Shown: positions 14,787 through 42,633 of the stretch, piece by piece
Position numbering within the stretch: the first letter of the stretch is position 1
Layout of the letters: every line of letters begins with the position of its first letter
Virus record (IMG/VR): IMGVR_UViG_2537561979_000006
DNA: 43,871 nt
Direction: 5' to 3' (one strand)
Source: a virus
Taxonomy: Duplodnaviria > Heunggongvirae > Uroviricota > Caudoviricetes
Made by a program: the position numbers and the translations under genes
The notes under the pieces: generated by a model
What the model was told of the DNA's origin: nothing
The model's input: the letters and a program-made list of their open reading frames with translations, nothing else
The model's database searches: none

Positions 14787-14990
14787 GGTAGACAATATTA
14801 CAAACCATATTCACTTTAGATGCCCGTGTTGTCATGGTTCCCAGTATAGAACATCATCTTTTGATGTTTCTGACATGAATCCTTTCGGGGCAAAATGTAT
14901 CTTTTGTAAATCAATGATGATTACATTTGATAATATTTCACAATACTTAAATGCCAGCCGTCTGTCGTTGGATTTAAAAAAGTGAAAATG

Positions 14991-15015
14991 AAGGCTCCTT
15001 CGGGAGCCTTTTTAA
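14991..15015 (+). terminator. Rho-independent terminator at the Qin-like/P2-like junction
   Basis: GGCTCC-ttcg-GGAGCC followed by TTTTT. Confidence 0.6.
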
Positions 15016-15092
15016 TGTCTGGCGTAACTGGAAAGCCGCGCCAGACAAGACTTCACGTTTTACTACTAGCAGTCAAAAGCCATAAAAAGCGG

Positions 15093-16136
15093 CTAGGGTG
15101 TGGACACATTGTGGACACTCTGACCACCATTGGCACCCTTCAACGGGTTAAGCGAAATCGCGTCCTGCAGGTACTGAGGAGCGAAGTGCGCATAGACCAT
15201 TGTCTGCGCAATTTTCGTATGACCTAAGATCCTCTGCAGTGTGATGATGTTGCCCCCGTTAATCATAAAGTGCGTCGCGAAAGAGTGTCGTAGCGCATGT
15301 GTTGCTTGTCCGGCCGGTAAATCGGGCTTAACCTCTTTGAGGGTTCGCCTGAAGTCAGCATAACTGGCCTCAGGAAACAGAAAACCTCGTGTTTTGCCGA
15401 CTACGTAAGCCGCAACGTCATCAGAGATCGGGACCGTGCGCGGTGTGTTGGTTTTCGTCTTAACGAAAGACACCCGGTTATGAATCACATTCTCCGCCTT
15501 CAATCGCGCAGCTTCTCCCCATCTTGCTCCGGTACTCAAACACAAAACCGCAATTTTACGATTATCACCTGAGAGCGCAGCAAGTAAGGCGTCAATTTCC
15601 TCAAGAGTGAGATAGCCCGTTTCGGCTGTCTGCTCTTTCAGTTTTTTGAATCCCCTGAATGGATGCTCACCGTTATACAGTTCTGACTCAATCAGGGTTG
15701 TGAACATCCCACCTAGCGTGATCAGGTCGCGGTTGATGGTAGTTGGCTTAATACCTTCACCCCGACGTTGAGCACAATATTGCGTTATCAGGCTCTTGGT
15801 GATCTGGAAAGCGCAAGGGTTTCCGGTCATCGTTTCGAAACGCTCAATTTTCCTGAGATACGATTGACCGTGCTCCTCATGTTTACCTTTCAGCTTCCAC
15901 CATAACTCTTTCAGTTCCGACAATTGGCGTTTGTCCGTTGGTTTTGAAAGCCATTCCTTTGAGTGATGGTTATATTGAGTATGCTTTTCAAAAGCCATCG
16001 CCTCGCTTTTCTTGTCGAACTTCCGACGGATGCGTTTTCCGTTACGCCCAGCCGGTCTAATGTCCACTTCATATCGACCATCATCGAGCTTTTTAACAGA
16101 CATAAAGCCTCCCGATGATGTTACTGCGTACTTCAA
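15093..16136 (-). CDS. int: P2-type tyrosine integrase
   Basis: Close match to P2 Int (KKLDDGRYEVDIRP...GARWGEAARLKAEN...HALRHSFATHFM...LGHT...VYAHF); the true start is probably the internal Met at 16103. Confidence 0.9.
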   Translation of the reverse strand: MKYAVTSSGGFMSVKKLDDGRYEVDIRPAGRNGKRIRRKFDKKSEAMAFEKHTQYNHHSKEWLSKPTDKRQLSELKELWWKLKGKHEEHGQSYLRKIERFETMTGNPCAFQITKSLITQYCAQRRGEGIKPTTINRDLITLGGMFTTLIESELYNGEHPFRGFKKLKEQTAETGYLTLEEIDALLAALSGDNRKIAVLCLSTGARWGEAARLKAENVIHNRVSFVKTKTNTPRTVPISDDVAAYVVGKTRGFLFPEASYADFRRTLKEVKPDLPAGQATHALRHSFATHFMINGGNIITLQRILGHTKIAQTMVYAHFAPQYLQDAISLNPLKGANGGQSVHNVSTP

Positions 16137-16199
16137 TTTCCTGATTTAGATAGCAAAAACTCACTGTGCATTTATTGCACAAAAAAGCGCCGTAAATGG

Positions 16200-16499
16200 T
16201 TAGCCAGTTTTCTGGTCTGAGTGGGGTGACGTTGTTGTCTGCTGCCCAAAGTGCGCGAGAGCCGGTGCAATCTGCCCAGCTTCAGGTGCTATTTGGTCAG
16301 TCATAAACCATAAGGTGTACTTGGTGAAACGAGGATGTTGAAGGATTCTCATTATGGGCTCGACACCCGGTTTTTTATCCCCAGCTTCGTATCCACAAAA
16401 TGAACCATATGCTATTCCAGTTAACTCACTGATTTCCTTTCTATTTAATCGTTCTGACTCCCTGATGAGTTTGATTTTTTCATTGATCGGGGTTGACAT
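16200..16499 (-). CDS. C: P2 C-type immunity repressor
   Basis: 99 aa; ...FTKYTLWFMTDQIAPEAGQIAPALAHFGQQTTTSPHSDQKTG matches the P2 repressor C-terminus as I recall it. Confidence 0.85.
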   Translation of the reverse strand: MSTPINEKIKLIRESERLNRKEISELTGIAYGSFCGYEAGDKKPGVEPIMRILQHPRFTKYTLWFMTDQIAPEAGQIAPALAHFGQQTTTSPHSDQKTG

Positions 16500-16619
16500 A
16501 AATCCTCCATACGATGATTATTCCCTTATAAGGAAATAAATTCCTTTTTAGGGGTTTTGGCTATAGGCAATTAAAGCCCTTTATGAGCAATTAAATGCAC
16601 TAAAGGAGAATCGTAACAG

Positions 16620-16898
16620 ATGAACAACCAGCTTGTAAGTAGCACGGATGCGGTCCCGTATCAGGAGTTTGCCCGTCTTATTGGTAAAACACCCGCAGCC
16701 GTTAAAGGCATGATTGAGAAGGGCAAGCTGCCTGTAGTCGAGATGACTGATCCGCAGTCAACGAGTGGGCGCGCAGGGGAATATTGGGTCTACCTGCCAG
16801 CATGGAACAAAGGAATGAAGATGGCTTATGACAGCCGTCCTAAAGAGATTCGCGATGGTTGGCTGATGTGGCTCGGCTTAGGGCAACCTTCACGGTAA
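16620..16898 (+). CDS. cox: P2 Cox-like excisionase/transcription regulator
   Basis: 92-aa ORF divergent from C, in the P2 immunity arrangement. Confidence 0.75.
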   Translation: MNNQLVSSTDAVPYQEFARLIGKTPAAVKGMIEKGKLPVVEMTDPQSTSGRAGEYWVYLPAWNKGMKMAYDSRPKEIRDGWLMWLGLGQPSR

Positions 16899-16939
16899 TT
16901 AGATTCACCTATTTCATTCAAATTCAATCGAGAAATTGC

Positions 16940-17179
16940 ATGTCAAAACCAATAAAACATGGCTGCATTCGTCATATCACTAATGGTATGCGGGTGCTGA
17001 TCGACTTAAAAAGCGTGGCCGCTATCCGTGAGCGCACTGAAACAGCCGATAAAGTTGAGGTGCATCTTACGTCGGGAGAAGTTTTTGAACTTGATGTTGC
17101 CTATGAGGAGATTGCAGGTCTGTATCTAGAATTTTTAGCAAAAGAACGTGGGGTTATGGCAAACCCCACCAGTATTTGA
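16940..17179 (+). CDS. P2 orf78-like early protein
   Basis: 79-aa ORF after cox (MSKPIKHGCIRHITNGMRVL...). Confidence 0.5.
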   Translation: MSKPIKHGCIRHITNGMRVLIDLKSVAAIRERTETADKVEVHLTSGEVFELDVAYEEIAGLYLEFLAKERGVMANPTSI

Positions 17180-17181
17180 GC

Positions 17182-17370
17182 TTAGTTGATATCTAAAAAG
17201 CTTTTATGCGTGACAGGCATTTTAGATTGAACTGCCTCTCTCAACTGGATTGACAGTTTGTTGATTTCCTCAGCCTTCTCACGATTAGAGATCGCATCAG
17301 AGGAAGAATTAACCAATGCAATGGCTGATTTTAGAGTGGCAATTAATTCATCATTTTGTTGATTAGTCAT
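17182..17370 (-). CDS. Small AT-rich coiled-coil ORF antisense to the early operon
   Basis: About 62 aa from the ATG at 17370 with a GAGG RBS; AT-rich relative to flanking P2 genes. Confidence 0.35.
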   Translation of the reverse strand: MTNQQNDELIATLKSAIALVNSSSDAISNREKAEEINKLSIQLREAVQSKMPVTHKSFLDIN

Positions 17371-17628
17371 GAAATACCTCATGTGATTGGCTTGTTTTTG
17401 GCGATTCGATCCTATCACAAGGCCATGTGTCGGGCATGGTTAAAACCCGACTCCCTAAGGAGTATTTATGAAAGAGCCTCGCTGTATTGCACAGTTGCTT
17501 CGAAGAGAAAGCCCTAATCCGATCAACTTCACCATCACTCACGGTCGCGGCCGCAAGGGCATAATCATCCGAACCCGTAAGCCGGGCGTTATCGAGAAGG
17601 TTCGCCGTCTGGTCAAAAAGAGAGGACT

Positions 17629-18135
17629 GTGGTTATGACGGTAATGACACTGGACGTGATCCAGAAACAACCAACAGCTCTTCGCGGTCTGGTCTGCAAG
17701 TATCTGGCTCAGCCTCGCTGGCAGGACACTTGTGATTTTTACAATCAGATGATGGAGCGGGAGCGTCTTACGGTTTGTTTCCACGCTCAATTAAAACAGC
17801 GTCACTCTGTGATGCGCTTAGAGGAAATGGCTGAAGCCGATCGTGAGCGTCTTGTTTGTGCGCTTGATGAATTGAGAAATGCATTCACCCGGTATCGTCA
17901 ACTTGGCGCGTCAAAAGCAACTTTCATCAGCCGCCTGACCGTCAGCCAAAGGCGTTCATTGTTTCTTCATGCTGGACTGACAGAGCAGGAATTTATGATG
18001 CCGCACTGGCGTTTGAATGAAGAGGACTGTTACTGGCGTGACAAACTTTTCCGCGCTCTGCGAGAGCTGTTCAGCCTTTTTGAGTACGCACCAACTATTT
18101 TAACCTCGGTAAAACCTGAGCAGTATTTACATTAA
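17629..18135 (+). CDS. B: P2 replication protein B-like
   Basis: ...RWQDTCDFYNQMMERERLTVCFHAQLKQRH...WRDKLFRALRELFSLFEYAPTILTSVKPEQYLH. Confidence 0.85.
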   Translation: MVMTVMTLDVIQKQPTALRGLVCKYLAQPRWQDTCDFYNQMMERERLTVCFHAQLKQRHSVMRLEEMAEADRERLVCALDELRNAFTRYRQLGASKATFISRLTVSQRRSLFLHAGLTEQEFMMPHWRLNEEDCYWRDKLFRALRELFSLFEYAPTILTSVKPEQYLH

Positions 18136-18183
18136 TTAATCTGGATTCGACTAATTACGCGCCTTACAGCGTGGGGACTCCTT

Positions 18184-18420
18184 TTGTCCGGAGATAGGCA
18201 AATGCAAAAACAAAATACAGCGCAGCGGGGGATGTACTCGGCACATCTGGCGCAGGCAGTAAGCGAGGCACAGCGCGACTTGGCGACCCGTTTCTCTTCT
18301 CAGTTTGATGGGCTTATCGCGTACATCAGTAAGTCAGAACTTAATCGCACCGAGATTATCGAGTTTTTAGGCCAGGAGTCGGAAAAGTTACACAACTCAA
18401 TTTTCGGTAGAGCTGGTTAA
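18184..18420 (+). CDS. P2 orf80-like protein
   Basis: Small ORF in the conserved position after B; the start may be the ATG at 18202. Confidence 0.5.
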   Translation: MSGDRQMQKQNTAQRGMYSAHLAQAVSEAQRDLATRFSSQFDGLIAYISKSELNRTEIIEFLGQESEKLHNSIFGRAG

Positions 18421-18442
18421 CCACTGTTAACAGGAAGCAAAA

Positions 18443-18706
18443 ATGAGCATACACATCGAGATTAATAACCAATACGTCATCACCAGTGACCGCTATCAAT
18501 TCATTTTGCAGGAAAAAAAGACCGCAACATCCGGGAAGAATGAAGGTAAGGAATGGTTGGACGTTGTGGGTTACTACCCAACTATCCCTAAGCTTATCTC
18601 AGGCTTGGTTTTGCATGATCTTTTAACCAGCGATCTTACCGGCTTCGCAGCTTTGGAAGCTCGGATTGAACGCATGGGTAAGCAATGTCTGGACGCTTTT
18701 AAATAA
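18443..18706 (+). CDS. P2 orf81-like protein
   Basis: 87-aa ORF immediately preceding gene A. Confidence 0.5.
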   Translation: MSIHIEINNQYVITSDRYQFILQEKKTATSGKNEGKEWLDVVGYYPTIPKLISGLVLHDLLTSDLTGFAALEARIERMGKQCLDAFK

Positions 18707-18707
18707 T

Positions 18708-20702
18708 ATGTCCAACGAACCTCGGGGGCGTGTTGCCCCCTCGCCACCACCACCATTTTTGAAGGGCACCAGTGATTCATTCGTTGGTGCTTATCCCTGG
18801 AATAATGTCTACAAAGAGGCTATAGGCCGCGACAGACCCCTTACACGTGGCGAATACCGTCAGGTGCAAGGTGTTTTAGGTAAAGTTAATCGCCTGCCAT
18901 ATGTCTTAAAAACATTGTTTAACTCGCGGTATGACTTCATCCGTCGTACAAAAAGTCCACTTCATGGTTTCTATTTCCTCAAGAACACCGTTGAGCAAAG
19001 GGTGGGGCCGCGTCTTGAGCGGGTTAATCAGTTAAATGGAATGAACGAGACTGCATCGCTTCTCTTTCTGAGCGAGCGCGAAAGCTATTCACGATTAGCG
19101 GGTATGAGTGACAAAGCGCTCAAAAAATTTGCTGCTCGTATTGCTTCGCAGCTCTATGTTGCTTATGAGGAACTTAGCGACGCATGGGCAGATGCTCATG
19201 GCGGTAAAGAAACCCTTTTCACCGATGAAGCGCAGGCGCACTTATATGGTCACGTTGCCGGTGCAGCTCGTGCATTCAACATCACCCCAATGTTCTGGAA
19301 GAAATACCGCAAAGGGCAAATCATGATCCGCCAGGCATTTTCCGCTATCGCTCGTCTGATTAACGATGAATGGTGGATTAACCAGTTTAAGGCGCAGCGT
19401 ATGCGCTGGCACGAGGCTTTGCTGATTGCCGCCGGTGAGGTGAATAAAGACCGCTCCCCATACGCCAGCAAAACGGCGATCCGTGATGTACATTCTCGCC
19501 GTAAAGCTAATTTCGAATACTTGAAGTCGTGTGACTTGGAAAACAAAGTCACTGGTGAGCGCATCGATCTCATCAGCAAAGTCATGGGAAGTATTTCAAA
19601 CCCCGAAATCCGTCGTATGGAACTGATGAATACTATCGCAGGGATTGAACGCTATGCGGCCGGTCAGGGTGACGTCGGGATGTTTATCACTATCACCACG
19701 CCGTCGAAGTATCACCCGACACGTCAGGTTGGAAAGGGCGACAAAAAGACGGTGCAGCTTAACCACGGATGGAATGAAACCGCCTTTACGCCCAAGGATG
19801 GACAGCGGTATTTGTGCCGTATCTGGAGCCTGATGCGTACAGCATTTAAAGATAACGGTCTGCAGGTCTACGGGATGCGTGTTGTTGAGCCGCATCATGA
19901 CGGGACTCCGCACTGGCATATGATGCTTTTTTGTAAACCAGAGCAACGCAAACAGGTCACCGAAATCATGCGCCGTTATGCCTTAAAAGAAGATGGCGAT
20001 GAAAAAGGCGCTGCAGCACAGCGCTTTGAAGCTAAGCACCTCAATCAAGGTGGCGCAGCCGGTTACATTGCAAAATACATCGCGAAGAATATCGATGGTT
20101 ACGCGCTCGATGGTCAGGTCGATCACGACACCGGCAAACCTCTAACCGATACCGCAGCAGCTGTAACCGCATGGGCGTCAACATGGCGTATCCCGCAATT
20201 CAAATCAATTGGCCTGCCGACGATGGGCGCGTACCGCGAACTGCGCAAACTGCCTCGCGGGGTAAGTATTGCTGATGAATTTGATGAGCGTGTCGAGGCG
20301 GCCAGAGCTGCAGCTGATGAAGGTGAATTTGACCGGTATATCGCAGCGCAGGGTGGGGCGAATGTTCCACGCGATAGCCAGACCGTCCGTGTGGCTCGTA
20401 ACGTGACTGATGAGGTCAACGCCTACGAAGAGGATATAGAGAGAGTTGTGGGCATCTACGCCCCGCACTTGGGCTCTGAGTTGGTACGTGTTACCCGGAC
20501 AGCCGAATGGCGCATTGTTCCAAAACTTTTGGCCGTTGAGCCTTTGACTTTAAAAAGCGGCATTGCCGCGCCTCGGAGTCCTGTCAATAACTGTGGGTTG
20601 GTTAAATCTTTCTCTGGCTCTAGTCAACTTTCCATATGTGCGGTTGAGAACGCTCAAGTGAAAGTGAGGCAGTTAATTCATCCCTTAAGAAGCTATGTAT
20701 AG
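18708..20702 (+). CDS. A: P2 gpA-like rolling-circle replication initiator (HUH endonuclease)
   Basis: HUH motif (PHWHMMLF) and Tyr motif (YIAKYIAKNIDGY); about 664 aa against ~761 for P2 A; the C-terminal ~35 residues look unrelated and AT-rich. Confidence 0.85.
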   Translation: MSNEPRGRVAPSPPPPFLKGTSDSFVGAYPWNNVYKEAIGRDRPLTRGEYRQVQGVLGKVNRLPYVLKTLFNSRYDFIRRTKSPLHGFYFLKNTVEQRVGPRLERVNQLNGMNETASLLFLSERESYSRLAGMSDKALKKFAARIASQLYVAYEELSDAWADAHGGKETLFTDEAQAHLYGHVAGAARAFNITPMFWKKYRKGQIMIRQAFSAIARLINDEWWINQFKAQRMRWHEALLIAAGEVNKDRSPYASKTAIRDVHSRRKANFEYLKSCDLENKVTGERIDLISKVMGSISNPEIRRMELMNTIAGIERYAAGQGDVGMFITITTPSKYHPTRQVGKGDKKTVQLNHGWNETAFTPKDGQRYLCRIWSLMRTAFKDNGLQVYGMRVVEPHHDGTPHWHMMLFCKPEQRKQVTEIMRRYALKEDGDEKGAAAQRFEAKHLNQGGAAGYIAKYIAKNIDGYALDGQVDHDTGKPLTDTAAAVTAWASTWRIPQFKSIGLPTMGAYRELRKLPRGVSIADEFDERVEAARAAADEGEFDRYIAAQGGANVPRDSQTVRVARNVTDEVNAYEEDIERVVGIYAPHLGSELVRVTRTAEWRIVPKLLAVEPLTLKSGIAAPRSPVNNCGLVKSFSGSSQLSICAVENAQVKVRQLIHPLRSYV

Positions 20703-20833: not shown

Positions 20834-21763
20834 ATGAGTGTTGCAAGACATCATCATTTTTTATCTCAATGTTATTTGAAAGGCTTTACAAGCAACGGGG
20901 GGAAAAAATCAAAATTAACTGTAATAGATTTAAAGGAGCGCAAAACTTTTGAAAGTAATACACGTAATGTCGGGGGTGTGAGAGATTTTAACCGATTAGA
21001 ATTGGATGGAGTTGATCCAAACTATCTCGAAAGTTCTCTTGCAGAGTTCGAAGGCAGTGTCGCCACTCATCTAAGGAAACTTGAGGAGGGCAAAGATTTT
21101 TCAGGCGAAACAAAAGATATCATTTTAGAGTTTATTTCCTTACTTGCGATACGCACGCCTGCTCAGCGAGAGCATTTATCATCGCCATTGAAACAAATAG
21201 CAAAGTTCATAATGAAATCTTCTGTTAGTTCGGCTGAGCGTTGGGAAGATTGCAAATTAGCTTATGAGAAAGAAAAGGGAGAGTCTTTGCCATATGATCT
21301 CGCTTACGAGAAAATTAAAGATTATGTTGATGGTGATAATTTCGAAATCAATGTAATCAGAGAGTTCATGATAGGCATGGAAATGCAATGTGTACCTGTA
21401 ATTGCTGAGCTGTTGCACCAACGCGACTGGTCACTTATGACCATATCTGATGGGCAAGGAACATTTATAACTTCAGATAACCCAGTTTGCTTAATGTGGA
21501 CTAATCCTGAATTATCACAAGGTCCTTATTCCCCGGGGTTTGGTCTAAAAGACACTTTAGTTTTGTTTCCAGTATCAAAAAATCTTCTTTTGGCAGGCGA
21601 GTTTGATGGTCATGAGGGGGTATTTAGTTGTAATGACGAGCAGGTTGCCATCTTTAACACTTCAGTCATCCGGCATACCGCAGAAAGAATTTTTTCAGCC
21701 AATGGAAATTTCCATTTTTTAGACGCAGCTAAAAGAATGAAGCAAGGTAAAAGCCTAGTTTGA
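20834..21763 (+). CDS. DUF4238-like protein; candidate anti-phage defence cargo
   Basis: 309 aa, AT-rich; N-terminal HHHFLSQCYLKGF and central FITSDNPV motifs resemble the DUF4238 signatures as I remember them; sits in the P2 A-to-cos (tin/old) cargo slot. Confidence 0.7.
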   Translation: MSVARHHHFLSQCYLKGFTSNGGKKSKLTVIDLKERKTFESNTRNVGGVRDFNRLELDGVDPNYLESSLAEFEGSVATHLRKLEEGKDFSGETKDIILEFISLLAIRTPAQREHLSSPLKQIAKFIMKSSVSSAERWEDCKLAYEKEKGESLPYDLAYEKIKDYVDGDNFEINVIREFMIGMEMQCVPVIAELLHQRDWSLMTISDGQGTFITSDNPVCLMWTNPELSQGPYSPGFGLKDTLVLFPVSKNLLLAGEFDGHEGVFSCNDEQVAIFNTSVIRHTAERIFSANGNFHFLDAAKRMKQGKSLV

Positions 21764-21978: not shown

Positions 21979-21997
21979 GGCGAGGCGGGGATAGCAC
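21979..21997. other. P2-type cos site (19-nt cohesive-end sequence)
   Basis: GGCGAGGCGGGGATAGCAC, one mismatch from the P2 cohesive end GGCGAGGCGGGGAAAGCAC as I recall it; located just beyond the 3' end of Q as in P2. Confidence 0.6.
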
Positions 21998-22162: not shown

Positions 22163-23188
22163 TTAGTCGGTCTCTATGTTGTAATCCTTAAAGCGGATCA
22201 CCTCCATCCCGAGCCAGTCGTTTATCTCTTTAAACCGCTCCTGCAGCGGCGTCAGCTCGTTACGCACAAACACCCGCGCCACCTTCTCGATATCGCCCAT
22301 CGAGCCGATATTTTCAGGCTTGCCGCCCATGAGCTGGAACGGCACGCGGTGCGCATCAAGCAGGTCGGCGGCGCTCACCTTCTTGATGTTAAAAAAATCA
22401 TCCTTCGTGGCGACTTCACTCAACGGCACGATCTTAATGCCGTCCGGTTTCCCGTTCGGGGCGTAGAAAAACAGGTTTTTAAAATTCCCGAGTCCTTTCG
22501 AGTCGCGCATCGCGGAGCGCAGCGCCTCGACGTCGGTGCTGCTTTGCGCCGCGTCGGTCACGTACATGATGTAACCCGCGTGCGCGCCGTTCTGGTAATA
22601 CTTGCGACGAAACAGCGTGGCGGATTCATTCAGCCAGGCGGAATTGAGCGCGCTCAGGTATTCCGGCATCCCGTAGAGCTCCTGATTGATATCAGGCTCA
22701 AGCAGATGAAACACCGAATCGGGGGCGAACTGGTGCGGGTGCGTATAGTCCGACACGTACCAGTAAACGCCAGCTTCGACACCACGGCGGGTGTATTTGG
22801 CCGGGGAGGTTTCCAGTTTAAAAAGCTGGCCGGTCACGCTCATGCGCTTCTCGAGATAGCCGTTGGCGAAGACCAGATAATCGAGCACAAGGCGGCTGAA
22901 GTCCTGACGAGACAGCAACGGGTGCGGGATAAAGGTGCTGGTCAGAATGTTGCGCTTAACGTAAATCGGGGAGCTGTGGTGCACGGCGGCGCGCAGGCTT
23001 TTTGCCAGTCCCGAGAAATTGACCGGCGGCTCGTACCATTTGCCGTTATTGATGCACTCGACATAGTCGAGGATGTCGCGGCGATCCAAAACGGGTGACG
23101 GCTCACCAAAGGTGAACGCCTCCATTTTCTGCGACGCGCTGGCGGCCATGTTGGCCTGTTTTGGCTGTTTCTTTTGGCGTTTTTTCAT
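22163..23188 (-). CDS. Q: P2 gpQ-like portal protein
   Basis: 341 aa, length and order as in P2 (Q then P, divergent from O). Confidence 0.85.
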   Translation of the reverse strand: MKKRQKKQPKQANMAASASQKMEAFTFGEPSPVLDRRDILDYVECINNGKWYEPPVNFSGLAKSLRAAVHHSSPIYVKRNILTSTFIPHPLLSRQDFSRLVLDYLVFANGYLEKRMSVTGQLFKLETSPAKYTRRGVEAGVYWYVSDYTHPHQFAPDSVFHLLEPDINQELYGMPEYLSALNSAWLNESATLFRRKYYQNGAHAGYIMYVTDAAQSSTDVEALRSAMRDSKGLGNFKNLFFYAPNGKPDGIKIVPLSEVATKDDFFNIKKVSAADLLDAHRVPFQLMGGKPENIGSMGDIEKVARVFVRNELTPLQERFKEINDWLGMEVIRFKDYNIETD

Positions 23189-23189
23189 C

Positions 23190-24959: not shown

Positions 24960-25125
24960 GCTTGCCTCGTTTTTGGTGTGACGTGGCAAGGCTAAGGAAA
25001 TAGGGGATTATTCGCGCTAAGTGCCTGTTGTGTCAGATCTAATCAGATCGTAAGCGGTGGCTGATGCGGGTCAGAGTCGGGAAACTAACCCCGACCCGAA
25101 AACCCAACATCAGGACACCTGAAAA

Positions 25126-25980: not shown

Positions 25981-26035
25981 TAACGCGCCGGGTGTGCTGC
26001 CCGGCCTGACCCCTTTTACCCGAACAGGAAAAACC

Positions 26036-27103: not shown

Positions 27104-27106
27104 GCC

Positions 27107-28670: not shown

Positions 28671-28672
28671 GT

Positions 28673-29797: not shown

Positions 29798-29930
29798 TGG
29801 CGACCTGAGTGCTGATATTCGCAGGCTCGAGCACGCGCTCGCGGCCTGCGCGCTGCAGGTTGAAACCGTCAAAGACTGTCAGGATAAACTCGATGAAGAA
29901 AGCACGCAGCCTGCGCGAAGCGCTGATTAA
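29640..29930 (+). CDS. lysC: LysC-like o-spanin lipoprotein
   Basis: 96 aa overlapping the lysB 3' end in another frame; signal peptide with Cys (LMLCAGC); proline-rich. Confidence 0.65.
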   Translation: MRMKPYAAGIALNCLMLCAGCTSAPVAPPPVIVYSTCPKVSYCPMPGSEPVINGDLSADIRRLEHALAACALQVETVKDCQDKLDEESTQPARSAD

Positions 29931-33675: not shown

Positions 33676-34022
33676 CGGTGCGTTATCTGGGAATGAACAG
33701 CCGGACCGGCCTCAGTATCTCTGAGGTTGAGCACATCCGGCAAAGCGTGCGCGACATTCTGGTCACGCCGGTTGGGTCGCGTGTCATGCGCCGTGAATAC
33801 GGCTCGCTCCTGTCGCAGATGATTGACCAGCCGCAGACCCCGGCGCTGCGCCTGCAGATTATGGCCGCGTGCTATTCCGCGATCCAGAAGTGGGAGCCAC
33901 GCGTAGACCTCTCGACCATTACCTTTGAACGGTCGGAGACCGACGGCGGGCTGTATGTCGACATCACCGGCACCCGCTCGACCGGCGGCCAGCCATTTTC
34001 CATCACCATTCCACTGAGTTAA
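33672..34022 (+). CDS. W: P2 gpW-like baseplate wedge protein
   Basis: 116 aa against 115 for P2 W; order V-W-J-I. Confidence 0.85.
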   Translation: MTVRYLGMNSRTGLSISEVEHIRQSVRDILVTPVGSRVMRREYGSLLSQMIDQPQTPALRLQIMAACYSAIQKWEPRVDLSTITFERSETDGGLYVDITGTRSTGGQPFSITIPLS

Positions 34023-34028
34023 ATCACT

Positions 34029-34937
34029 ATGGCAACCGTTGACCTGAATCAGTTACCCGTTCCCGATGTGGTGGAAGAACTGGACTTTGAAACCATTCTT
34101 GCCGAACGCATTGCGACGCTAATTTCACTCTATCCTGAAGACCAGCAGGAGGCCATTGCCCGGACGCTCACACTTGAATCAGAGCCGATTGTTAAGCTGT
34201 TACAGGAAAACGCCTATCGTGAAGTTATCTGGCGTCAGCGTGTGAACGAAGCCGCGCAGGCGGTAACGCTGGCCTATTCAACCGGTCGCGACCTTGACGT
34301 TGTGGCCGGGAACAATAATACCGGACGCCTGACCATTACCCCTGCTGATGACACCACCATACCGCCAACGCCTGCCGTTATGGAATCAGATGCTGACCTG
34401 CGACTGCGCACACAACAAGCTTTTGAAGGATTAAGTGTGGCGGGTCCGGTTGGCGCTTATGAGTATCACGGTCGAAGCGCTGACGGACGGGTCGCCGACG
34501 TCTCTGTCGAAAGCCCGTCGCCCGCCTGCGTGACGATTTCCGTGTTATCCCGTGAGGGTGACGGCACCGCGAGCCCTGAGTTACTGGCAATCGTTGAAAA
34601 AGCACTGAACGCCGAAGATGTGCGCCCGTTGGCTGACCGGGTGACCGTCCAGTCAGCCGAAATTGTGCCGTACCAGATTGACGCGACGATATACGTTTAC
34701 CCCGGTCCCGAATCTGAACCCATCAGGCAGGCCTCAGAGCAGAAGCTGCAGAGTTATATCAGCGCGCAGCACCGCCTCGGGCGTGATATCCGGCTGTCAG
34801 CCATTTACGCGGTGCTGCATGTTGAGGGGGTACAGCGTGTCGAGCTGGCATCACCACAGGCCGATATTGTGCTGAGCAAGTCGCAGGCGTCGAACTGTAC
34901 CGAGTACCAGATAACTATCGGGGGCTCGGATGAGTGA
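34029..34937 (+). CDS. J: P2 gpJ-like baseplate protein
   Basis: 302 aa, same length as P2 J. Confidence 0.85.
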   Translation: MATVDLNQLPVPDVVEELDFETILAERIATLISLYPEDQQEAIARTLTLESEPIVKLLQENAYREVIWRQRVNEAAQAVTLAYSTGRDLDVVAGNNNTGRLTITPADDTTIPPTPAVMESDADLRLRTQQAFEGLSVAGPVGAYEYHGRSADGRVADVSVESPSPACVTISVLSREGDGTASPELLAIVEKALNAEDVRPLADRVTVQSAEIVPYQIDATIYVYPGPESEPIRQASEQKLQSYISAQHRLGRDIRLSAIYAVLHVEGVQRVELASPQADIVLSKSQASNCTEYQITIGGSDE

Positions 34938-35538
34938 CCGGCTGTTACCCGTTGGCTCGTCGCCGCTGGAGGTTGCCGCCGCTGCCGCGCTCTCTGAGAT
35001 TCAGCGCGTGCCGGTAACGCTCCGCACTCTGTGGAACTGGCGCACCTGCCCGGTAAACCTGCTGCCGTATCTGGCGTGGGCGCTGTCGGTCGACCGGTGG
35101 GATGAGAAGTGGCCGGAGGCGACAAAGCGCAGCGTCTGCGCATCTTCGTTTTTCGTCCATCAGCACAAAGGCACCATCAGCGCATTGCGTCGGGTGGTTG
35201 AGCCGCTCGGCTTTCTGATTGAGGTGCGCGAGTGGTGGCAGCTCAACGAGGCGCCAGGCACTTTCCGCCTCGTTGTCGGCGTGCTCGACAGCGGCATCAC
35301 TGATGAAATGTATCAGGAGCTCGAGCGCCTGATTGATGACGCCAAACCGGCAAGCCGCCACCTCACCGGGCTGGCTATCAGCCTGAGTGCCACCGGCGAG
35401 CTGTATGTCGGCGCGGGATGCTACGACGGCGACGCGCTCACCGTTTACCCCTACACCCCCGAGGAAATTGTCGTCGGCGGTGAATATTACCCGGCCTCGG
35501 CCATCCATTTGATTGATAACCTGAGAGTGAACGCATGA
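34930..35538 (+). CDS. I: P2 gpI-like baseplate protein
   Basis: 202 aa, in order after J. Confidence 0.8.
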   Translation: MSDRLLPVGSSPLEVAAAAALSEIQRVPVTLRTLWNWRTCPVNLLPYLAWALSVDRWDEKWPEATKRSVCASSFFVHQHKGTISALRRVVEPLGFLIEVREWWQLNEAPGTFRLVVGVLDSGITDEMYQELERLIDDAKPASRHLTGLAISLSATGELYVGAGCYDGDALTVYPYTPEEIVVGGEYYPASAIHLIDNLRVNA

Positions 35539-36521
35539 CCGCAAAATATTTAGCCATTCTGACCAATCAGGGCGCGGCGCGGCTGGCGAACGCGGCGGCA
35601 CTCGGTACCAGACTAAACCTGACGCAGATGGCCGTCGGTGATGCGAATGGTACGCTGCCTACACCTGACCCGGCGCAGACGAAGCTCATTAACCAGAAGC
35701 GCATCGCGCCGCTGAACCTGCTGAACGTTGATCCGGCCAATACCAGCCAGATTATCGCGGAACAAATTATTCCCGAGAATGAGGGCGGTTTCTGGATCCG
35801 AGAGATTGGTCTCTACGATGATGAGGGGATTCTGATTGCCGTGGCAAACTGCCCGGAGACCTACAAACCGCAACTGCAGGAGGGAAGCGGCCGCACGCAG
35901 ACCATTCGCATGATTCTGATTGTGTCGAGCACGTCGGCCGTTACCCTGAAAATCGACCCGTCGGTGGTGCTGGCAACGCGGCAGTATGTCGAGGATAAGG
36001 TTATCGAGGTGAAAGCCTATGCCGATAATCTGCTGGCCGCACACCTCGCCGCTGCAGACCCGCACACGCAATACCTCAAAACGGCGGATATTGATAAATA
36101 CATTCCGGTCGGTTTTCCGCTGCCGTGGCCGCAGGCAACACCGCCGGAGGGCTGGCTTAAATGCAACGGCGCGGTTTTTGACAAGGTGAAATATCCAAAG
36201 CTGGCTGTCGCTTATCCATCCGGTAAATTGCCTGACTTGCGCGGTGAGTTTTTGCGAGGGTGGGATGACGGGCGCGGGATAGACAATGGACGAGCGCTAT
36301 TATCCGCTCAGGTCGGCTCTGGAGTTGGGATGTTCCTCGGTGGTCATTCAGATGGGACCGCATATATCCCATTGAGTGATTTCGACAGCGTTGTCGACAA
36401 CAGCCCGTCATGGTCACATGTAAATACCGCAGGGCTGATTTCTTCAATTGGTGGTCAACGGTCATCATTCGGCGCTCGCCCACGCAACATTGCATTTAAC
36501 TACATCGTGAGGGCGGCATAA
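35535..36521 (+). CDS. H: Tail fibre protein (gpH position), short chimeric form
   Basis: 328 aa against ~669 for P2 H; the C-terminus ends ...[14 protein letters not shown], the conserved ending shared with lambdoid side tail fibres. Confidence 0.75.
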   Translation: MTAKYLAILTNQGAARLANAAALGTRLNLTQMAVGDANGTLPTPDPAQTKLINQKRIAPLNLLNVDPANTSQIIAEQIIPENEGGFWIREIGLYDDEGILIAVANCPETYKPQLQEGSGRTQTIRMILIVSSTSAVTLKIDPSVVLATRQYVEDKVIEVKAYADNLLAAHLAAADPHTQYLKTADIDKYIPVGFPLPWPQATPPEGWLKCNGAVFDKVKYPKLAVAYPSGKLPDLRGEFLRGWDDGRGIDNGRALLSAQVGSGVGMFLGGHSDGTAYIPLSDFDSVVDNSPSWSHVNTAGLISSIGGQRSSFGARPRNIAFNYIVRAA

Positions 36522-37117
36522 TGGCAAAAGCGACACTTAACAAACAGGGCATTACCACAAAAGCCGGTGATATGACGGTTTATAACTATGACGGTGAAAC
36601 CCGCGAATATCTGACGTCCTCTGTCGAGTTTCTGGCGCTGGGCGTGGGGATTCCTGCTAATTCCTGCACCGATGCACCGGTCGAAAAAAAGGAGGGTTTC
36701 GCGGTGTGCCGAGCGGCCAGTCTTGACGGGTGGGAGTATGTCGCAGACCATCGCGGTGAGACGGTTTATGACACGGAAACCGGTCAGCCGGTCAACATTA
36801 CCGCACCCGGTGACTATGCCCCCGGTGTAACTACGTTTGCACCGTCTACCCCCTGTGACCGCTGGAACGGTAGCGAATGGGTCACGGATAAGGACGCGCA
36901 GAAAAACGGTCAGGTTAAGGAGGCAGAACAGAAAAAATCCGCGCTGCTGAATAAGGCACAAAGCACTATCAGCCTGTGGCAGACTGAGCTGCAGCTCGGC
37001 ATCATCAGCGACGATGACAAGGCCAGCCTGATTGCGTGGATGAAATACATTCAGTCGCTGAACGTGATCGACACCTCTGCTGCGCCGTATATTGAGTGGC
37101 CGGAAAGACCTGAATAA
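36521..37117 (+). CDS. G: Tail fibre assembly chaperone (gpG/Tfa family)
   Basis: 198 aa; conserved Tfa C-terminus (DDDKASLIAWMKYIQSLNVIDTSAAPYIEWPERPE). Confidence 0.8.
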   Translation: MAKATLNKQGITTKAGDMTVYNYDGETREYLTSSVEFLALGVGIPANSCTDAPVEKKEGFAVCRAASLDGWEYVADHRGETVYDTETGQPVNITAPGDYAPGVTTFAPSTPCDRWNGSEWVTDKDAQKNGQVKEAEQKKSALLNKAQSTISLWQTELQLGIISDDDKASLIAWMKYIQSLNVIDTSAAPYIEWPERPE

Positions 37118-37122
37118 ACGAA

Positions 37123-37146
37123 GCCCTCCACCCGGAGGGCTTTTTT
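37123..37146 (+). terminator. Rho-independent terminator after G
   Basis: GCCCTCC-accc-GGAGGGC followed by TTTTTT. Confidence 0.7.
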
Positions 37147-37240
37147 GTATGTTGTGTTATCCCTCCACCAACGGCATTGCATCGCGCCTGCGCGACACAC
37201 AACAGAAAATAGTCGCACCCCTAACCACGGAGTTAAACAG

Positions 37241-38434
37241 ATGGGCGACTATCATCACGGCGTCGAGGTCATCGAGATTAATGATGGCACGCGCACCATT
37301 TCCACCGTCTCGACGGCCATCATCGGCATGGTCTGCACGGCCAGCGATGCTGACGCAAAGACATTCCCCCTGAACGAGCCGGTGCTGATTACCAGCGTGC
37401 AAACGGCGATCGGTAAGGCCGGTAAAAAAGGCACGCTGGCAAAATCCCTGCAGGCCATTGCCGACCAGTGCAAGCCGGTCATTGTGGTGGTGCGCGTTCC
37501 CGAAGGTGTCGACGACCCGTCAGACCCGGAAGCGGCGCAGAAAGAAACCATTTCCAACATCATCGGCACGACCGACGAAAACGGCAAATACACCGGGCTG
37601 AAAGCGCTGTTAACAGCGAAAACCGTCACCGGTGTTAAGCCGCGCATTCTCGGCGTGCCGGGCGTGGATACGCAGGAAGTGGCGACCGCTCTTGCGTCGA
37701 CCTGCCAGAGCCTGCGCGCGTTCGGCTATGTGAGCGCGTGGGGCTGCAAGACCATTTCCGACGCCATTAAATACCGTGAGAACTTCAGCCAGCGCGAGCT
37801 CATGGTCATTCACCCTGATTTTCTGGCATGGGACACCACGGCGAACGAAACCGATATTGCATGGGCGACCGCCCGCGCGCTCGGCCTGCGCGCCAGAATC
37901 GACCAGGATACCGGCTGGCACAAAACGCTGTCCAACGTCGGCGTGAATGGCGTCACCGGCGTCAGCGCCTCGGTCTCATGGGATTTGCAGGAGCAGGCCA
38001 CCGACGCCAACCTGCTGAATCAGGCCGGGGTGACAACGCTCATCCGCAACGATGGCTTTAAATTCTGGGGTAACCGAACCTGCTCGGACGATCCATTATT
38101 CGTGTTTGAAAACTACACCCGCACGGCGCAGGTGCTGGCCGACACGATGGCGGAAGCGCACGCGTGGGCGATGGATAAGCCCGTTTCTGCAACGCTCATC
38201 CGCGACATCGTCGCCGGTATCAATGCCAAATTCCGCGAGCTGAAAAACAACGGCTATATCGTTGACGGCTCCTGCTGGTACGACCCGGAGTCAAACAGCG
38301 TGGAAACCCTCAAAGCCGGGAAACTGTATATCGATTACGACTACACCCCCGTCCCGCCGCTGGAAAACCTGACCCTGCGCCAGCGCATCACCGATACCTA
38401 TCTGGCAGACCTGTCAGACTCGGTCAACAGCTAA
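37241..38434 (+). CDS. FI: P2 gpFI-like tail sheath protein
   Basis: About 397 aa from MGDYHHGVEVIEINDGTRTIS...; 396 in P2. Confidence 0.9.
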   Translation: MGDYHHGVEVIEINDGTRTISTVSTAIIGMVCTASDADAKTFPLNEPVLITSVQTAIGKAGKKGTLAKSLQAIADQCKPVIVVVRVPEGVDDPSDPEAAQKETISNIIGTTDENGKYTGLKALLTAKTVTGVKPRILGVPGVDTQEVATALASTCQSLRAFGYVSAWGCKTISDAIKYRENFSQRELMVIHPDFLAWDTTANETDIAWATARALGLRARIDQDTGWHKTLSNVGVNGVTGVSASVSWDLQEQATDANLLNQAGVTTLIRNDGFKFWGNRTCSDDPLFVFENYTRTAQVLADTMAEAHAWAMDKPVSATLIRDIVAGINAKFRELKNNGYIVDGSCWYDPESNSVETLKAGKLYIDYDYTPVPPLENLTLRQRITDTYLADLSDSVNS

Positions 38435-38446
38435 GGAGCTCAGAGC

Positions 38447-38965
38447 ATGGCGTTACCACGCAAACTGAAATACCTGAACATGTTTAACGACGGTCTCAGC
38501 TACATGGGCGTCGTTGAATCCGTCACCCTGCCAAAGCTGACCCGCAAGCTTGAGAAATATCGCGGCGGCGGGATGCCGGGCTCGGTGTCTATTGACCTCG
38601 GCCTCGACGACGACGCGCTGTCGCTTGAGTGGACGCTGGGCGGCCTGCCTGACGTCGCGCTGTGGGCGCAGTATGCGTCACCGGGTGCCGACAGCGTGCC
38701 GCTGCGCTTCACCGGCTCATTCCAGCGCGATGATACCGGCGCAATTTCCGCCGTTGAGGTGGTCATGCGTGGCCGTCACAAGGAGTACGACGGCGGCGAG
38801 AACAAACAGGGCGAAAGCGGCACGACCAAAATCGCGACCGAGTGCTCGTATTACCAGCTCACGATTGACGGCAAAGAGGTCATCGAGATTGACGTCGTCA
38901 ACATGGTGATGAAAGTCGACGGCGTTGACCGTCTCGCTGAGCACCGCCGGGCGATTGGCCTGTAA
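38447..38965 (+). CDS. FII: P2 gpFII-like tail tube protein
   Basis: 172 aa, same length as P2 FII. Confidence 0.9.
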   Translation: MALPRKLKYLNMFNDGLSYMGVVESVTLPKLTRKLEKYRGGGMPGSVSIDLGLDDDALSLEWTLGGLPDVALWAQYASPGADSVPLRFTGSFQRDDTGAISAVEVVMRGRHKEYDGGENKQGESGTTKIATECSYYQLTIDGKEVIEIDVVNMVMKVDGVDRLAEHRRAIGL

Positions 38966-39025
38966 CCCGTTAACCGGTCAGCCAGGCTGGCCGGTCACTT
39001 ACTCACATTCAAAGAGAGCAACATC

Positions 39026-39334
39026 ATGGAAAACATCAACGAAACCGCCACCATCGAAACCGAAAACCCAAACATTGTGATCCTCGATAATCCAATCATG
39101 CGCGGTGAGCAAAAAATCGAACAGGTGACCGTGTCCAAACCCAACGCCGGTACTCTGCGCGGTGTGAGTCTGGCCTCGCTGGCAAACTCTGACGTCGATG
39201 CGCTGATTAAGGTGCTGCCGCGCATGACGTACCCGGCGCTGACCGAGCCCGAGGTCATGCGTCTGGAAGCATCAGACCTGATTTTGTTCGCCGGTAAGGT
39301 GGTCGGTTTTTTGTCGCCATCTTCGGCTCGCTGA
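39026..39334 (+). CDS. E: P2 gpE-like tail assembly chaperone
   Basis: 102 aa; carries a slippery T6G tract near its 3' end. Confidence 0.8.
   Translation: MENINETATIETENPNIVILDNPIMRGEQKIEQVTVSKPNAGTLRGVSLASLANSDVDALIKVLPRMTYPALTEPEVMRLEASDLILFAGKVVGFLSPSSAR
39307..39313 (+). promoter_or_regulatory. Slippery site for the programmed -1 frameshift giving E+E'
   Basis: T TTT TTG heptamer in X XXY YYZ register; the -1 frame stays open from here to a stop at 39486-39488, overlapping the T start, as in the P2 E/E' arrangement. Confidence 0.65.
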
Positions 39335-39478
39335 CGTTCCCGGACAACCTTTCGGTCGATGACCTGATGGCGGATATCGCGGTGATATTTCACTGGCCGC
39401 CATCAGAGCTGAATTCCCTGAGCGTGACCGAGCTCATCACATGGCGCGAAAAGGCGCTGCAGCGAAGCGGACACCACC

Positions 39479-41926
39479 ATGAGCAATAACGTCAGGATTG
39501 AGGTACTGCTGAACGCAGTAGACCGGGCAAGCCGACCGCTCAAAGCTATCCAGACTGCCAGCAAGACCCTTGCTGGCGATATCCGCACTTCTCAGAACAG
39601 CCTGCGCGATCTGAATGCGCAGGCTGGCCGAATTGACGGATTCAGGAAAGCGAGCGCACAGCTTGCCGTGACAGGCCAGTCGCTTAACAAGGCGAAACAG
39701 GAAGCCGCCGCGCTGGCCGTCCAGTTTAAAAACACGCAGAACCCTACAACCGCGCAGGCGCGCGCGATGGAGGCGGCAAAGAAATCCGCCGCTGACCTGC
39801 AGCTCAAATACAACAGCCTCAGGCAGTCGGTACAGCGCCAGCGCACCGAGCTCGCGCAGGCCGGGATTAACACCCGTACTCTCTCGGCGGATGAGCGCCG
39901 CCTGAAAACCAGCATCAGTGAGACGACCGCGCAACTTAACCGGCAGCGCGAGGCACTGGCGCGGGTCAGTCAACAGCAGGCGCGACTCAGTCGCGTTAAA
40001 GAGCGTTATCAGGCCGGTAAATCCCTTGCCGGAGGCGCTGCAGCGGCAGGCGCGGCGGGCGTCGGTATCGCCACTGCGGGAACAATGGCCGGAGTGAAAT
40101 TACTCTCGCCCGGTTATGAGTTTGCACAGAAAAACTCTGAGCTGCAGGCCGTGCTCGGCGTTGATAAACAGTCACCCGAAATGGAGGCGCTGCGCAAACA
40201 GGCGCGCCAGCTCGGGGATAATACCGCTGCGTCTGCAGATGATGCGGCGAGCGCGCAGATTATCATTGCGAAAAGCGGCGGGGATGCCGCAGCGATTCAG
40301 GCGGCGACGCCGGTCACGCTGAATATGGCGCTGTCTAACCGTCGCTCGATGGAAGAAAACGCCGCGCTGCTGACGGGTATGAAATCCGCGTTTCAGATGT
40401 CAAACGACCAGATCGCACACATCGGCGACGTGCTGTCGATGACCATGAACAAAACGGCTGCTGACTTTGACGGGCTGAGCGACGCGCTGACGTATGCTGC
40501 GCCGGTGGCAAAAAATGCCGGGGTCAGTATCGAGCAGACCGCCGCAATGGTCGGCGCGCTCCATGACGCCAAAATCACCGGCTCGATGGCGGGGACGGGC
40601 AGCCGTGCCGTCCTGAGTCGCCTGCAGGCTCCGACCGGTAAGGCATACGAGGCTATCAAAGAGCTCGGCGTTAAAACGTCTGACAGCAAGGGCAACACGC
40701 GCCCGATATTCGCCATTCTGAAAGAAATGCAGCGCAGTTTTGAGAAAAATAATCTCGGAACAAGCCAGAAAGGCGAGTACATGAAAACCATCTTTGGTGA
40801 GGAAGCCAGCTCGGCGGCGGCGGTACTGATGACCGCTGCCTCAAGCGGCAAGCTCGACCAGCTCACGGCGGCGTTTAAAGCCTCGGACGGGAAAACCGCT
40901 GAGCTCGTTAAAATTATGCAGGACAACCTCGGCGGTGACTTCAAAGAATTCCAGTCAGCCTATGAGGCCGTCGGTACTGACCTGTTTGACCAGCAGGAGG
41001 GCTCACTGCGAAAGCTCACCCAGACCGCCACGAAATATGTGTTAAAGCTCGACGGCTGGATCCAGAAAAATCAGGGGCTGGCGCAAACCATCGGCATCAT
41101 CGCAGGCGGTGCACTGGCAATTATTGGCATCCTCGGGGCAATTGGTCTCGTTGCCTGGCCGGTTATTACCGGCATTAATATGTTAATAGCCGGTGCATCG
41201 CTGCTAGGAACGATTTTCTCGGTGGTGGGTGGTGCCATTATGGCCGTGCTCGGGGCGCTTACCTGGCCGATAGTGGCTATTGGCGTTGCCATCGTCGCCG
41301 GTGCGCTGCTTATCCGCAAATACTGGGAGCCCATAAGCGCGTTTTTCTCAGGCGTAATGGAGGGGCTAAAGCAGGCTTTTGCCCCTGTAGTGGAACTATT
41401 CGAACCGTTAAAGCCGGTTTTTGACTGGCTGGGTGACAAACTGAAAGCGGCATGGCAGTGGTTTAAAGACCTGATAGCCCCGGTTAAGTCGACGCAGGAG
41501 ACGCTCGACAGCTGCAAAAATGCGGGTGTGATGTTCGGTAAGATGCTGGCCGAAGCGCTGATGTTACCGCTCAAAAGCTTTAATACATTGCGCACCGGCG
41601 TTAACTGGCTGTTGGAAAAGCTCGGGGTTATCAATAAAGAATCGAGCGACCTTGACCAGAAGGCCGCTAAAGCCAGTGCCGCCACCGGCTCGCAAAATGG
41701 GGCTTATATTCCGGCAACCTCAGCATATGGCGGTTATCAGGCATATCAGCCGGTAACAGCACCCACTGGTAAGACTTACGTCGACCAGAGCAAGCCTGAA
41801 TATAACATCAACCTGAATGGTGGCATCGCGCCGGGCAGCGACCTTGACCGGCAACTCCGCGAGGCTGTCGATAGATTCGACCGTGAAAACCGTGCGCGTC
41901 AGCGCTCAAGTATGCGCCATGACTGA
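39479..41926 (+). CDS. T: P2 gpT-like tail tape measure protein
   Basis: 815 aa, same length as P2 T; coiled-coil N-terminus and Gly/Ala-rich hydrophobic C-terminal region. Confidence 0.9.
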
Positions 41927-42058
41927 GGGGGATATTGGTGCTCATACGCACTCCGTTGCGATTGGTTCACATGGACACACCATCACCGTTAACGCTGCTG
42001 GTAACGCGGAAAACACCGTCAAAACATCGCATTTAACTATATTGTGAGGCTTGCATAA
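41919..42058 (+). pseudogene. 3' remnant of a side-tail-fibre gene, frameshifted
   Basis: Encodes ...[29 protein letters not shown]; the conserved ending [11 protein letters not shown]-stop is present but in another frame; an A4 run at 42021-42024 would need one more A. There is no upstream stf body: the frame runs back into the T gene. Confidence 0.6.
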
Positions 42059-42633
42059 TGGCATTCAGAATGAGTGAACAACCACGGACCATAAAAATTT
42101 ATAATCTGCTGGCCGGAACTAATGAATTTATTGGTGAAGGTGATGCATATATTCCGCCTCATACAGGTCTGCCAGCAAACAGTACCGATATTGCACCGCC
42201 AGATATTCCGGCTGGCTTCGTGGCTGTTTTCAACAGTGATGAGTCATCGTGGCATCTCGTTGAAGATCATCGGGGTAAAACGGTTTATGACGTGGCTTCC
42301 GGCGACGCGTTATTTATTTCTGAACTCGGTCCGTTACCGGAAAATGTTACCTGGTTATCGCCGGAAGGGGAGTTTCAGAAGTGGAACGGCACAGCCTGGG
42401 TGAAGGATACGGAAGCAGAAAAACTGTTCCGGATCCGGGAGGCGGAAGAAACAAAAAACAACCTGATGCAGGTAGCCAGTGAGCATATTGCGCCGCTTCA
42501 GGATGCTGCAGATCTGGAAATTGCAACGGAGGAAGAAATCTCGTTGCTGGAAGCATGGAAAAAGTATCGGGTATTGCTGAACCGTGTTGATACGTCAACT
42601 GCACAGGATATTGAATGGCCAGCACTGCCGTAG
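42058..42633 (+). CDS. tfa: Tail fibre assembly protein (Tfa)
   Basis: 191 aa; conserved Tfa C-terminus ([33 protein letters not shown]); its start overlaps the stf stop (TAATG). Confidence 0.8.

Follow-up and report, generated by a model that had tools for sequence, protein, structure and literature searches.

Layout of the window

The 43,871-nucleotide virus record IMGVR_UViG_2537561979_000006 (Caudoviricetes), analysed at its full length and called the window here, holds a P2-like prophage block inside Qin, a lambdoid cryptic prophage of Escherichia coli. Positions 1-15007 and 41935-43871 are E. coli Qin with 99.9-100% identity, and the P2-like block between them (15008-41934) comprises 26,927 bp with a GC content of 52.8%, compared to 43-44% in the Qin parts. 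On its left, the block adjoins the att core GGCTCCTTCGGGAGC (14993..15007), the putative integrase crossover site in the ynfQ terminator stem-loop, and it ends at the deletion joint GGGGGATA (41927..41934) in the T-U intergenic ribosome-binding region. A first-pass annotation made from the sequence alone had described a contiguous P2-like prophage of about 27 kb, int through T, with Qin genes on both sides, and both the gene order obtained with Pfam and tblastn and the identity of the flanks to the Qin of K-12 and O15_8X agree with this. The limits it proposed, 14787-42060, enclose the block, but the left edge was set too far out since 14787-15007 is still Qin (ynfQ with the terminator and att core). 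The right limit is close to the joint, but the exact position is 41933/41934, and 41935-42060 belongs to the stf remnant.

For the comparison with E. coli, 5,426 complete RefSeq genomes were searched with BLAST. Positions 13000-15013 and 41933-43871 match the Qin of K-12, and of many other strains, with 99.9-100% identity. The left part is 100% identical to the Qin of O15_8X save for one 1,588-bp gap, and from cspB onwards it shares 99.9% identity with K-12; for the late Qin region as a whole (cspB to ynfQ and stf' to ydfK), the identity to K-12 is 99.94-99.95%. In O15_8X, rspB directly precedes window position 1, on the lambdoid int side. At the other end, ydfJ, ydfI, ydfH and ydfG come after ydfK in L014, an assembly locus that is 100% identical to window positions 29479-43871, so that the element occupies the chromosomal position of Qin between rspB and ydfJ. 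Because of the left match to O15_8X and this continuation to the right, the window is essentially the whole Qin prophage with a foreign block inside.

Left junction and attachment sites

The attachment sites were compared base by base. The attB of K-12 reads GAAAATGAA-GGCTCCTTCGGGAGC-TTTTTTGCTTGG, the attL of the window GAAAATGAA-GGCTCCTTCGGGAGC-CTTTTTAATGTCTGG, and the attR of three lysogens with a complete prophage (L013, L016 and L017) TTTTAAAAA-GGCTCCTTCGGGAGC-TTTTTTGCTTGG. All three share the 15-bp core GGCTCCTTCGGGAGC and have reciprocal flanks, attL consisting of the left side of attB plus a phage arm and attR of a phage arm plus the right side of attB. The attL core lies at 14993-15007, within the interval 14787-15092 in which the first-pass annotation had suggested searching for it, and the first phage-specific base is C15008, where K-12 has a T. 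The attR is deleted in the window; its counterpart with the same core is found in the three lysogens. According to a hairpin scan, the core coincides with the stem-loop of a terminator-like hairpin after ynfQ. Attachment sites identical to the attL of the window occur in L003, L007, L010 and L113.

In K-12 and O15_8X, attB is unoccupied and the two Qin flanks are joined by ordinary Qin DNA. Alignment with K-12 Qin and with strains lacking the insertion thus placed both junctions, and the empty site bears out the earlier view of Qin as the resident and the P2-like element as the newcomer. The integration step that had been proposed can now be described as site-specific, with one core in attB, attL and attR. 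Because these forms share the 15-bp core with reciprocal flanks, the left junction is read from the sequence as a true integrase product.

The integrase itself points to Enterobacter. An exact copy of the Int protein is encoded in Enterobacter sp. RIT637, and proteins with 97-98% identity are found in Huaxiibacter chinensis and Enterobacter bugandensis. In these hosts, the integrase gene is located next to equivalent hairpins that follow either a LysE-family or an MCP (chemoreceptor) gene. The int-side att arm (15008-15092) is identical in Enterobacter lysogens. In 12 loci with an identical Int, the phage arm is constant up to AAAAAGGCTCC, and the loop and the flank beyond it are host-specific. 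This flank is Qin in E. coli; most Enterobacter-type hosts have a LysE-family gene there, and others have a chemoreceptor gene. Among 19 IMG/VR contigs, 13 were of the LysE type, three of the MCP type and one of the Qin type, one was cut off at its end, and one was attP-like. In the latter (L108), both phage arms are joined around GGCTCCTGAGGGAGCC, and the sequence departs from the int arm after about 25 nt. Across L003-L012, L020-L022 and L104-L127, whose att hairpins were compared, the 4-nt loop varies with the host (TCGG, TCAG, CGCA, GAAG and others) and the stems GGCTCC/GGAGCC are constant.

In E. coli, the LysE-family gene has its closest homologue in leuE, whose terminator differs (AGCCCGCG-ACAA-CGCGGGCT), and all occurrences seen in E. 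coli are at Qin. The Qin site is not a copy of a chromosomal attB, as it shares only the hairpin with the usual Enterobacter LysE-family terminator site. Enterobacter phage ENT4, the best phage match of the block (87% identity over 62%), was considered as a source of attP and rejected: it has no such hairpin beside its int arm, and its integrase module therefore differs. Metagenome contigs yielded no match to the exact ogr-side arm of the E. coli type, neither as attP nor as attR; a looser att pattern found attR-type joints in other hosts.

The distribution of the phage also bears on the possibility that cspI and stf/tfa/pin are natural cargo of a single P2-like lineage and that no nesting took place. 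Cargo located between att and int, or between att and ogr, is known from P2-like phages (PMC13586616), and tfaQ and P2 gpG are members of one family, Caudo_TAP. However, thousands of E. coli genomes carry the same genes as a contiguous Qin without P2 genes, the same phage is flanked directly by chromosomal genes in Enterobacter, where the Qin genes are absent from it, and the phage arms stop at the att core. This explanation, which the first-pass annotation had itself named as one that would overturn its reading, is refuted by these genomes and retains next to no probability.

Complete lysogens and the right junction

The exact T protein was found in 95 blocks of the assembly collection. U, D and ogr come after T in L013, L016, L017 and L018; the contig of L018 ends before attR. 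The other three carry a gene for a 429-aa reverse transcriptase after ogr, followed by attR. Past attR, L013 and L016 proceed to ynfR, ynfN, gnsB, ydfO and ynfO, and L013 further on to nohA, stf', tfaQ, pinQ and ydfK. L013, L016 and L017 contain a complete prophage in the same Qin site as that of the window. The prophages of all four loci share 99.95-99.98% identity with the window over 12.5 kb, and the phage part differs among E. coli hosts at only 2-6 positions in these 12.5 kb. As a separate observation, the reverse transcriptase gene between ogr and attR (L013 14871-16160) was identified as Drt2 by PADLOC (E-value 6e-208).

The right joint was read by comparing the window with the T-U junction of L013 and with the stf remnants of L013 and K-12. 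The window tracks L013 up to ...CATGACTGAGGGGGATA, which covers the T stop codon and the ribosome-binding region of U; from there it runs on into TTGGTGCTCATACGC of the stf remnant. Both parents contain the TA at 41933-41934, which constitutes a 2-bp microhomology. Compared to the L013-type arrangement, exactly 6,780 bp are missing. Of these, about 3.9 kb were phage DNA and about 2.8 kb belonged to Qin; they carried U, D, ogr, the DRT2 gene, attR, ynfR, ynfN, gnsB, ydfO, ynfO, nohA and most of stf'. None of the protein or DNA of this segment was found elsewhere in the window. The deletion of the right arm postulated by the first-pass annotation is confirmed by the complete lysogens, which still carry U-D-ogr-DRT2-attR and ynfR to nohA; it was not confined to phage DNA, since the Qin part was removed as well.

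Beyond TA, no similarity between the endpoints was detected in 2-kb windows around them. For this reason the right joint is assigned, on sequence grounds, to illegitimate recombination, neither homologous nor invertase-mediated. A Pin-mediated or homology-driven deletion was considered and rejected, as nothing beyond TA is common to the endpoints and the joint shows no evident invertase crossover-like sequence. The identical right joint occurs in L014, L015 and L019.

A different account of the joints is that the window is an assembly artefact, in which Qin was wrongly joined to a P2-like prophage that belongs to another place in the genome or to contaminating Enterobacter. Several properties would fit such an error: the best match to the block in a complete E. 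coli genome has only 81% identity over 74%, the closest phage is from Enterobacter, the GC content of the block is above that of Qin, and the homopolymers at 28064 and 42021 each differ by one base, which hints at error-prone sequencing. Nevertheless, the left joint corresponds exactly to a product of att recombination, and it recurs in at least four other assemblies, the right joint in at least three, from different projects and with different single-nucleotide polymorphisms in the flanks. In addition, the complete lysogens show the matching attR beside ynfR. Misassembly, which had also been raised in the first-pass annotation, is refuted by the recurrence of the joints in independent assemblies and is very improbable.

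It could also be that more than one step led to the loss of the right end, or that it was lost by recombination with another Qin variant, for example by a deletion from an O15_8X-like Qin. The Qin arm from attB to the stf joint does vary in length: K-12 has about 3.2 kb, O15_8X 6.1 kb and L013 2.8 kb. None of the complete lysogens is the direct parent, and other decay variants exist, such as L138 with M joined to FII. Against this, one clean joint with a 2-bp microhomology accounts for the data, and all truncated lysogens seen have the same joint. A loss in several steps therefore has a low probability, and a single deletion is preferred. In the decay variant mentioned (L138, GCA_018023135.1), M is directly followed by FII, E, E' and T, and L through FI are deleted.

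Gene content of the P2-like block

The block follows the P2 gene order int-C-cox-B-A-cos-Q-P-O-N-M-L-X-holin-lysozyme-lysB/C and then R-S-V-W-J-I-H-G-FI-FII-E-E'-T, as determined with Pfam on the window-identical loci L003, L014 and L134 and with tblastn. A tyrosine integrase lies beside a divergent C/Cox switch (Pfam Phage_integrase, Int_N and Phage_Cox; PHROG 147), and the replication genes B and A are present (Pfam Phage_RepB and Phage_GPA). The cos site is located beside Q, with Q and P on the opposite strand and divergent from O-N-M-L, which are followed by the lysis genes. No homologue of U, D or ogr was found in the window by tblastn; an Ogr-type late activator is thus missing here and present in the complete relatives. 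The tail operons from R to T are present and U and D are absent, so the P2 tail set is incomplete and the element is a truncated P2-like (Peduoviridae) member.

The early region (15008..20702, labelled with Pfam on the identical locus L003) contains int (15093-16103, minus strand), the C repressor (16200-16499, minus strand, PHROG 147 regulator), cox (16620-16898, plus strand), small open reading frames (ORFs) between cox and B, B (17635-18135), genes for a DUF2732 (18202-18420) and a DUF5405 protein (18443-18706), and A (18708-20702, plus strand). The A protein has 664 aa and a replaced C-terminus. Its first 630 residues are conserved, with 82-86% identity to relatives, and the last approximately 130 aa of the relatives are swapped for 34 unrelated residues at the edge of a cargo hotspot. 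This altered form is common to all E. coli lysogens of the P2-like phage. The cos site (21979..21997, plus strand) was the single match in a scan with 0.01 matches expected by chance, and it has one mismatch to the P2 cohesive-end sequence.

The head and lysis module together with R and S spans 22163..30814. It comprises Q (22163-23188, minus strand), P (23190-24959, minus strand), O (25126-25980), N (26036-27103), M (27107-27862), L (27962-28467), X (28467-28670), the holin (28661-28882), the lysozyme (28866-29375), lysB (29372-29797), lysC (29685-29930), R (29893-30360) and S (30353-30814). In the lysis cassette, lysB/lysC directly follow the lysozyme gene, and lysA of a related E. coli A15 prophage has no counterpart. 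The tail module (33034..41926, plus strand throughout, Pfam on L014) consists of V (33034-33675), W (33672-34022), J (34029-34937), I (34930-35538), H (35535-36521), G (36521-37117), FI (37241-38434), FII (38447-38965), E (39026-39334), E' (approximately 39367-39489) and T (39479-41926).

Cargo genes

Two genes in the block are cargo. The first, located in the A/Q hotspot (20834..21763, plus strand), encodes a single-gene anti-phage system of the DUF4238 type. It matched the PADLOC model DUF4238-Pers over its full length (E-value 2.5e-217), and Pfam assigned DUF4238 as well. A DUF4238 system from P2 hotspots was reported to protect against T7 (PMC9122126). The ORF at 21760-22068 was considered as a partner and rejected, as the cos region overlaps with it and its PHROG matches are limited to weak fragments; it is probably not a gene.

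The second gene, at the S/V junction (31117..32913, plus strand), is AT-rich (34% GC) and encodes a 598-aa protein without a match in Pfam, PHROG, PADLOC or NCBIfam. Its AlphaFold model (pLDDT 71) has an N-terminal helical membrane bundle at about residues 21-202, a beta-rich domain at 207-546 and a C-terminal transmembrane helix, and no meaningful match to this structure was found in the PDB. A profile search identified 286 representative clusters with the same architecture of about 600 aa. Ten distant family members likewise had no Pfam or PADLOC match. In the contexts examined, the homologues are always single genes in mobile elements. They occupy the P2 S/V site and the P2 Q/A defence hotspot; in Yersinia ruckeri the neighbour is a MobA relaxase, and in Xenorhabdus the gene lies at the end of a different prophage. 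The protein is a candidate for a new defence, anti-phage or exclusion factor.

Functional state of the element

The truncated element retains int, C, cox, B and A, the genes for head and lysis, the majority of the tail genes and the two cargo genes; its immunity genes are kept. Since attR is missing, it would not excise; since Ogr is missing, its late genes would not be activated; and since gpU and gpD are missing, no tail would be completed. The P2-like element has thus presumably lost its function as a phage. The head completion gene L has T5 at 28064-28068, compared to T6 in five related lysogens, resulting in a frameshift that is found in the window only. In the stf remnant at 42021, the window has A4 and its relatives have A5. 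Both homopolymer differences may be sequencing errors instead of real decay.

Genes of the Qin flanks

The left part of Qin (1..14992) was labelled with Pfam on the window-identical locus L003. It begins with the lambdoid int (20-1300, minus strand) and xis (1335-1586, minus strand), followed by an exonuclease pseudogene, dicA (3877-4284, minus strand) and dicC (4368-4598, plus strand), of which the latter two were identified through the O15_8X annotation. Next are an ISNCY transposase (approximately 6940-8253), flxA, ydfV, relBE (9555-10081), hokD (10153-10308), a Q remnant (10492-10752), cspF, cspB, ynfU, essD (12656-12871), ydfR, rrrQ (13184-13717), rzpQ (13714-14211), cspI (14574-14786) and ynfQ/ymcF (14797-14985). 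The right part (41935..43871, 99.9% identity to K-12) contains the last 125 bp of the stf remnant (41935-42060), tfaQ (42058-42633, plus strand), pinQ (42731-43321, minus strand) and ydfK (43638-43871, minus strand).

The 1,588 bp of O15_8X Qin that are gone at approximately 4653-4655 cover most of a YdaT-family gene and the O replication gene. The Q antiterminator is kept only as the remnant at 10492-10752, and quuQ, ydfU and rem, present in L007 and L010, are missing from the Qin of the window. Rfam identified the sok antitoxin RNA (6695-6866) upstream of the ISNCY transposase, the cspA-type thermoregulator leaders of cspB (11526-11918) and cspI (14428-14813), and IS009 RNA within tfaQ (42401-42599). 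DicF had no Rfam match in the window.

Interpretation

The most probable explanation, which we hold with high confidence, is that a P2-like phage integrated at the ynfQ terminator of Qin and later lost its right end by the 6,780-bp deletion. A temperate P2-like phage, with an integrase and att arms typical of Enterobacter prophages, would have infected a Qin-carrying E. coli. Its tyrosine integrase would have recombined attP, a palindromic hairpin (AAAAAGGCTCC-N4-GGAGCCTTTTT), with the terminator hairpin that directly follows ynfQ within the cspI-ynfQ unit of Qin. The expected product is a complete prophage of approximately 30.9 kb between 15-bp repeats GGCTCCTTCGGGAGC. A later single illegitimate deletion would then have joined the T-U spacer to the 3' end of the stf remnant via the 2-bp microhomology, leaving a grounded prophage. 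The sequences directly show the three forms of att, the unoccupied site, relatives with a complete prophage and precisely which segment was deleted, and from them we infer the order of events and a deletion in one step.

Some observations weigh against this explanation. The right Qin flank of the complete lysogens differs from that of the window by 1.65%, and a direct parent of the window element was not found among the lysogens. The complete lysogens are therefore cousins of the ancestor of the window element and not the ancestor itself, and more than one integration or transfer in E. coli is likely, judging from these comparisons. Furthermore, the P2-like prophage occurs in none of the complete RefSeq E. 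coli genomes searched, and all supporting lysogens are draft or Logan assemblies. Finally, attL and attR both have the Qin version, TTCG, at the centre of the core, and the attP-like contig and most Enterobacter sites have TGAG or other loops. The exchange points can thus not be fixed from the sequence: either attP already had TTCG, or central mismatches were tolerated and settled towards the host version. If the host loop ends up in both attL and attR, excision would reset the attP of the phage to the loop of its last host.

A further possibility, which we regard as tentative and rather doubtful, is that the ynfQ terminator served as a landing pad that let an Enterobacter-type P2-like phage lysogenise E. 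coli, with the host keeping the cargo, including a possible new anti-phage or exclusion family. It is suggested by the different leuE terminator and by the fact that all E. coli lysogens seen sit at Qin. In that case, a cryptic prophage would widen the lysogenic host range of an unrelated phage.

Under the integration and deletion model, the locus is a fully resolved natural example, for which the empty site, a complete lysogen and a truncated lysogen are all available. It would illustrate how prophages pile up and decay at one place, with a cryptic prophage supplying the att site and a deletion welding two elements together. The locus further shows that an integrase recognising a short palindromic terminator hairpin can target unrelated genes in different genera. 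The truncated element may still provide its host with defence genes, namely the DUF4238 gene and possibly the 598-aa orphan; DRT2 was lost.

Comparison with known systems

Integration of prophages into prophages has been described in E. coli, in Shiga toxin-producing and enteropathogenic strains (Nakamura et al. 2021, PLoS Pathog, PMC8112680), and the Qin case does not change current concepts. As in that study, attB lies inside a resident prophage, and empty and occupied forms coexist in the species. The guests described there were lambdoid phages, including Stx phages, in lambdoid prophages, with attB copies apparently derived from the chromosome, and they were inducible. In contrast, the guest here is P2-like and the host is the cryptic Qin, whose terminator hairpin merely resembles the target in another genus, and the guest was later truncated. 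A literature search found no paper on a P2-like phage in Qin.

The element resembles P2 and P2-like prophages (Peduoviridae) in its gene order, its int-C-cox switch and the position of cos next to Q. P2 itself uses locI plus weaker secondary sites. Like P2-like prophages with alternative att sites, the integrase studied here is found at several attB sites. It differs from P2-like prophages of E. coli in its integrase, which is only about 75% identical at the DNA level, and from P2 in its core, which is a palindromic terminator hairpin, as well as in the missing U, D, ogr and attR. The cargo hotspots at A/Q and inside the tail genes are another shared feature; such hotspots of P2-like phages, including those within tail genes and next to att, are documented (PMC13586616; PMC9122126).

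The closest parallel to its decay is the P2 remnant ogr-D' at the cyaR site of K-12 (listed in PMC3032704), likewise a P2-type prophage that was immobilised by a deletion at one end and kept some of its genes. However, only the ogr-D' end was kept in K-12, whereas the opposite end, int to T, is kept here, and the deletion here ran into a second prophage.

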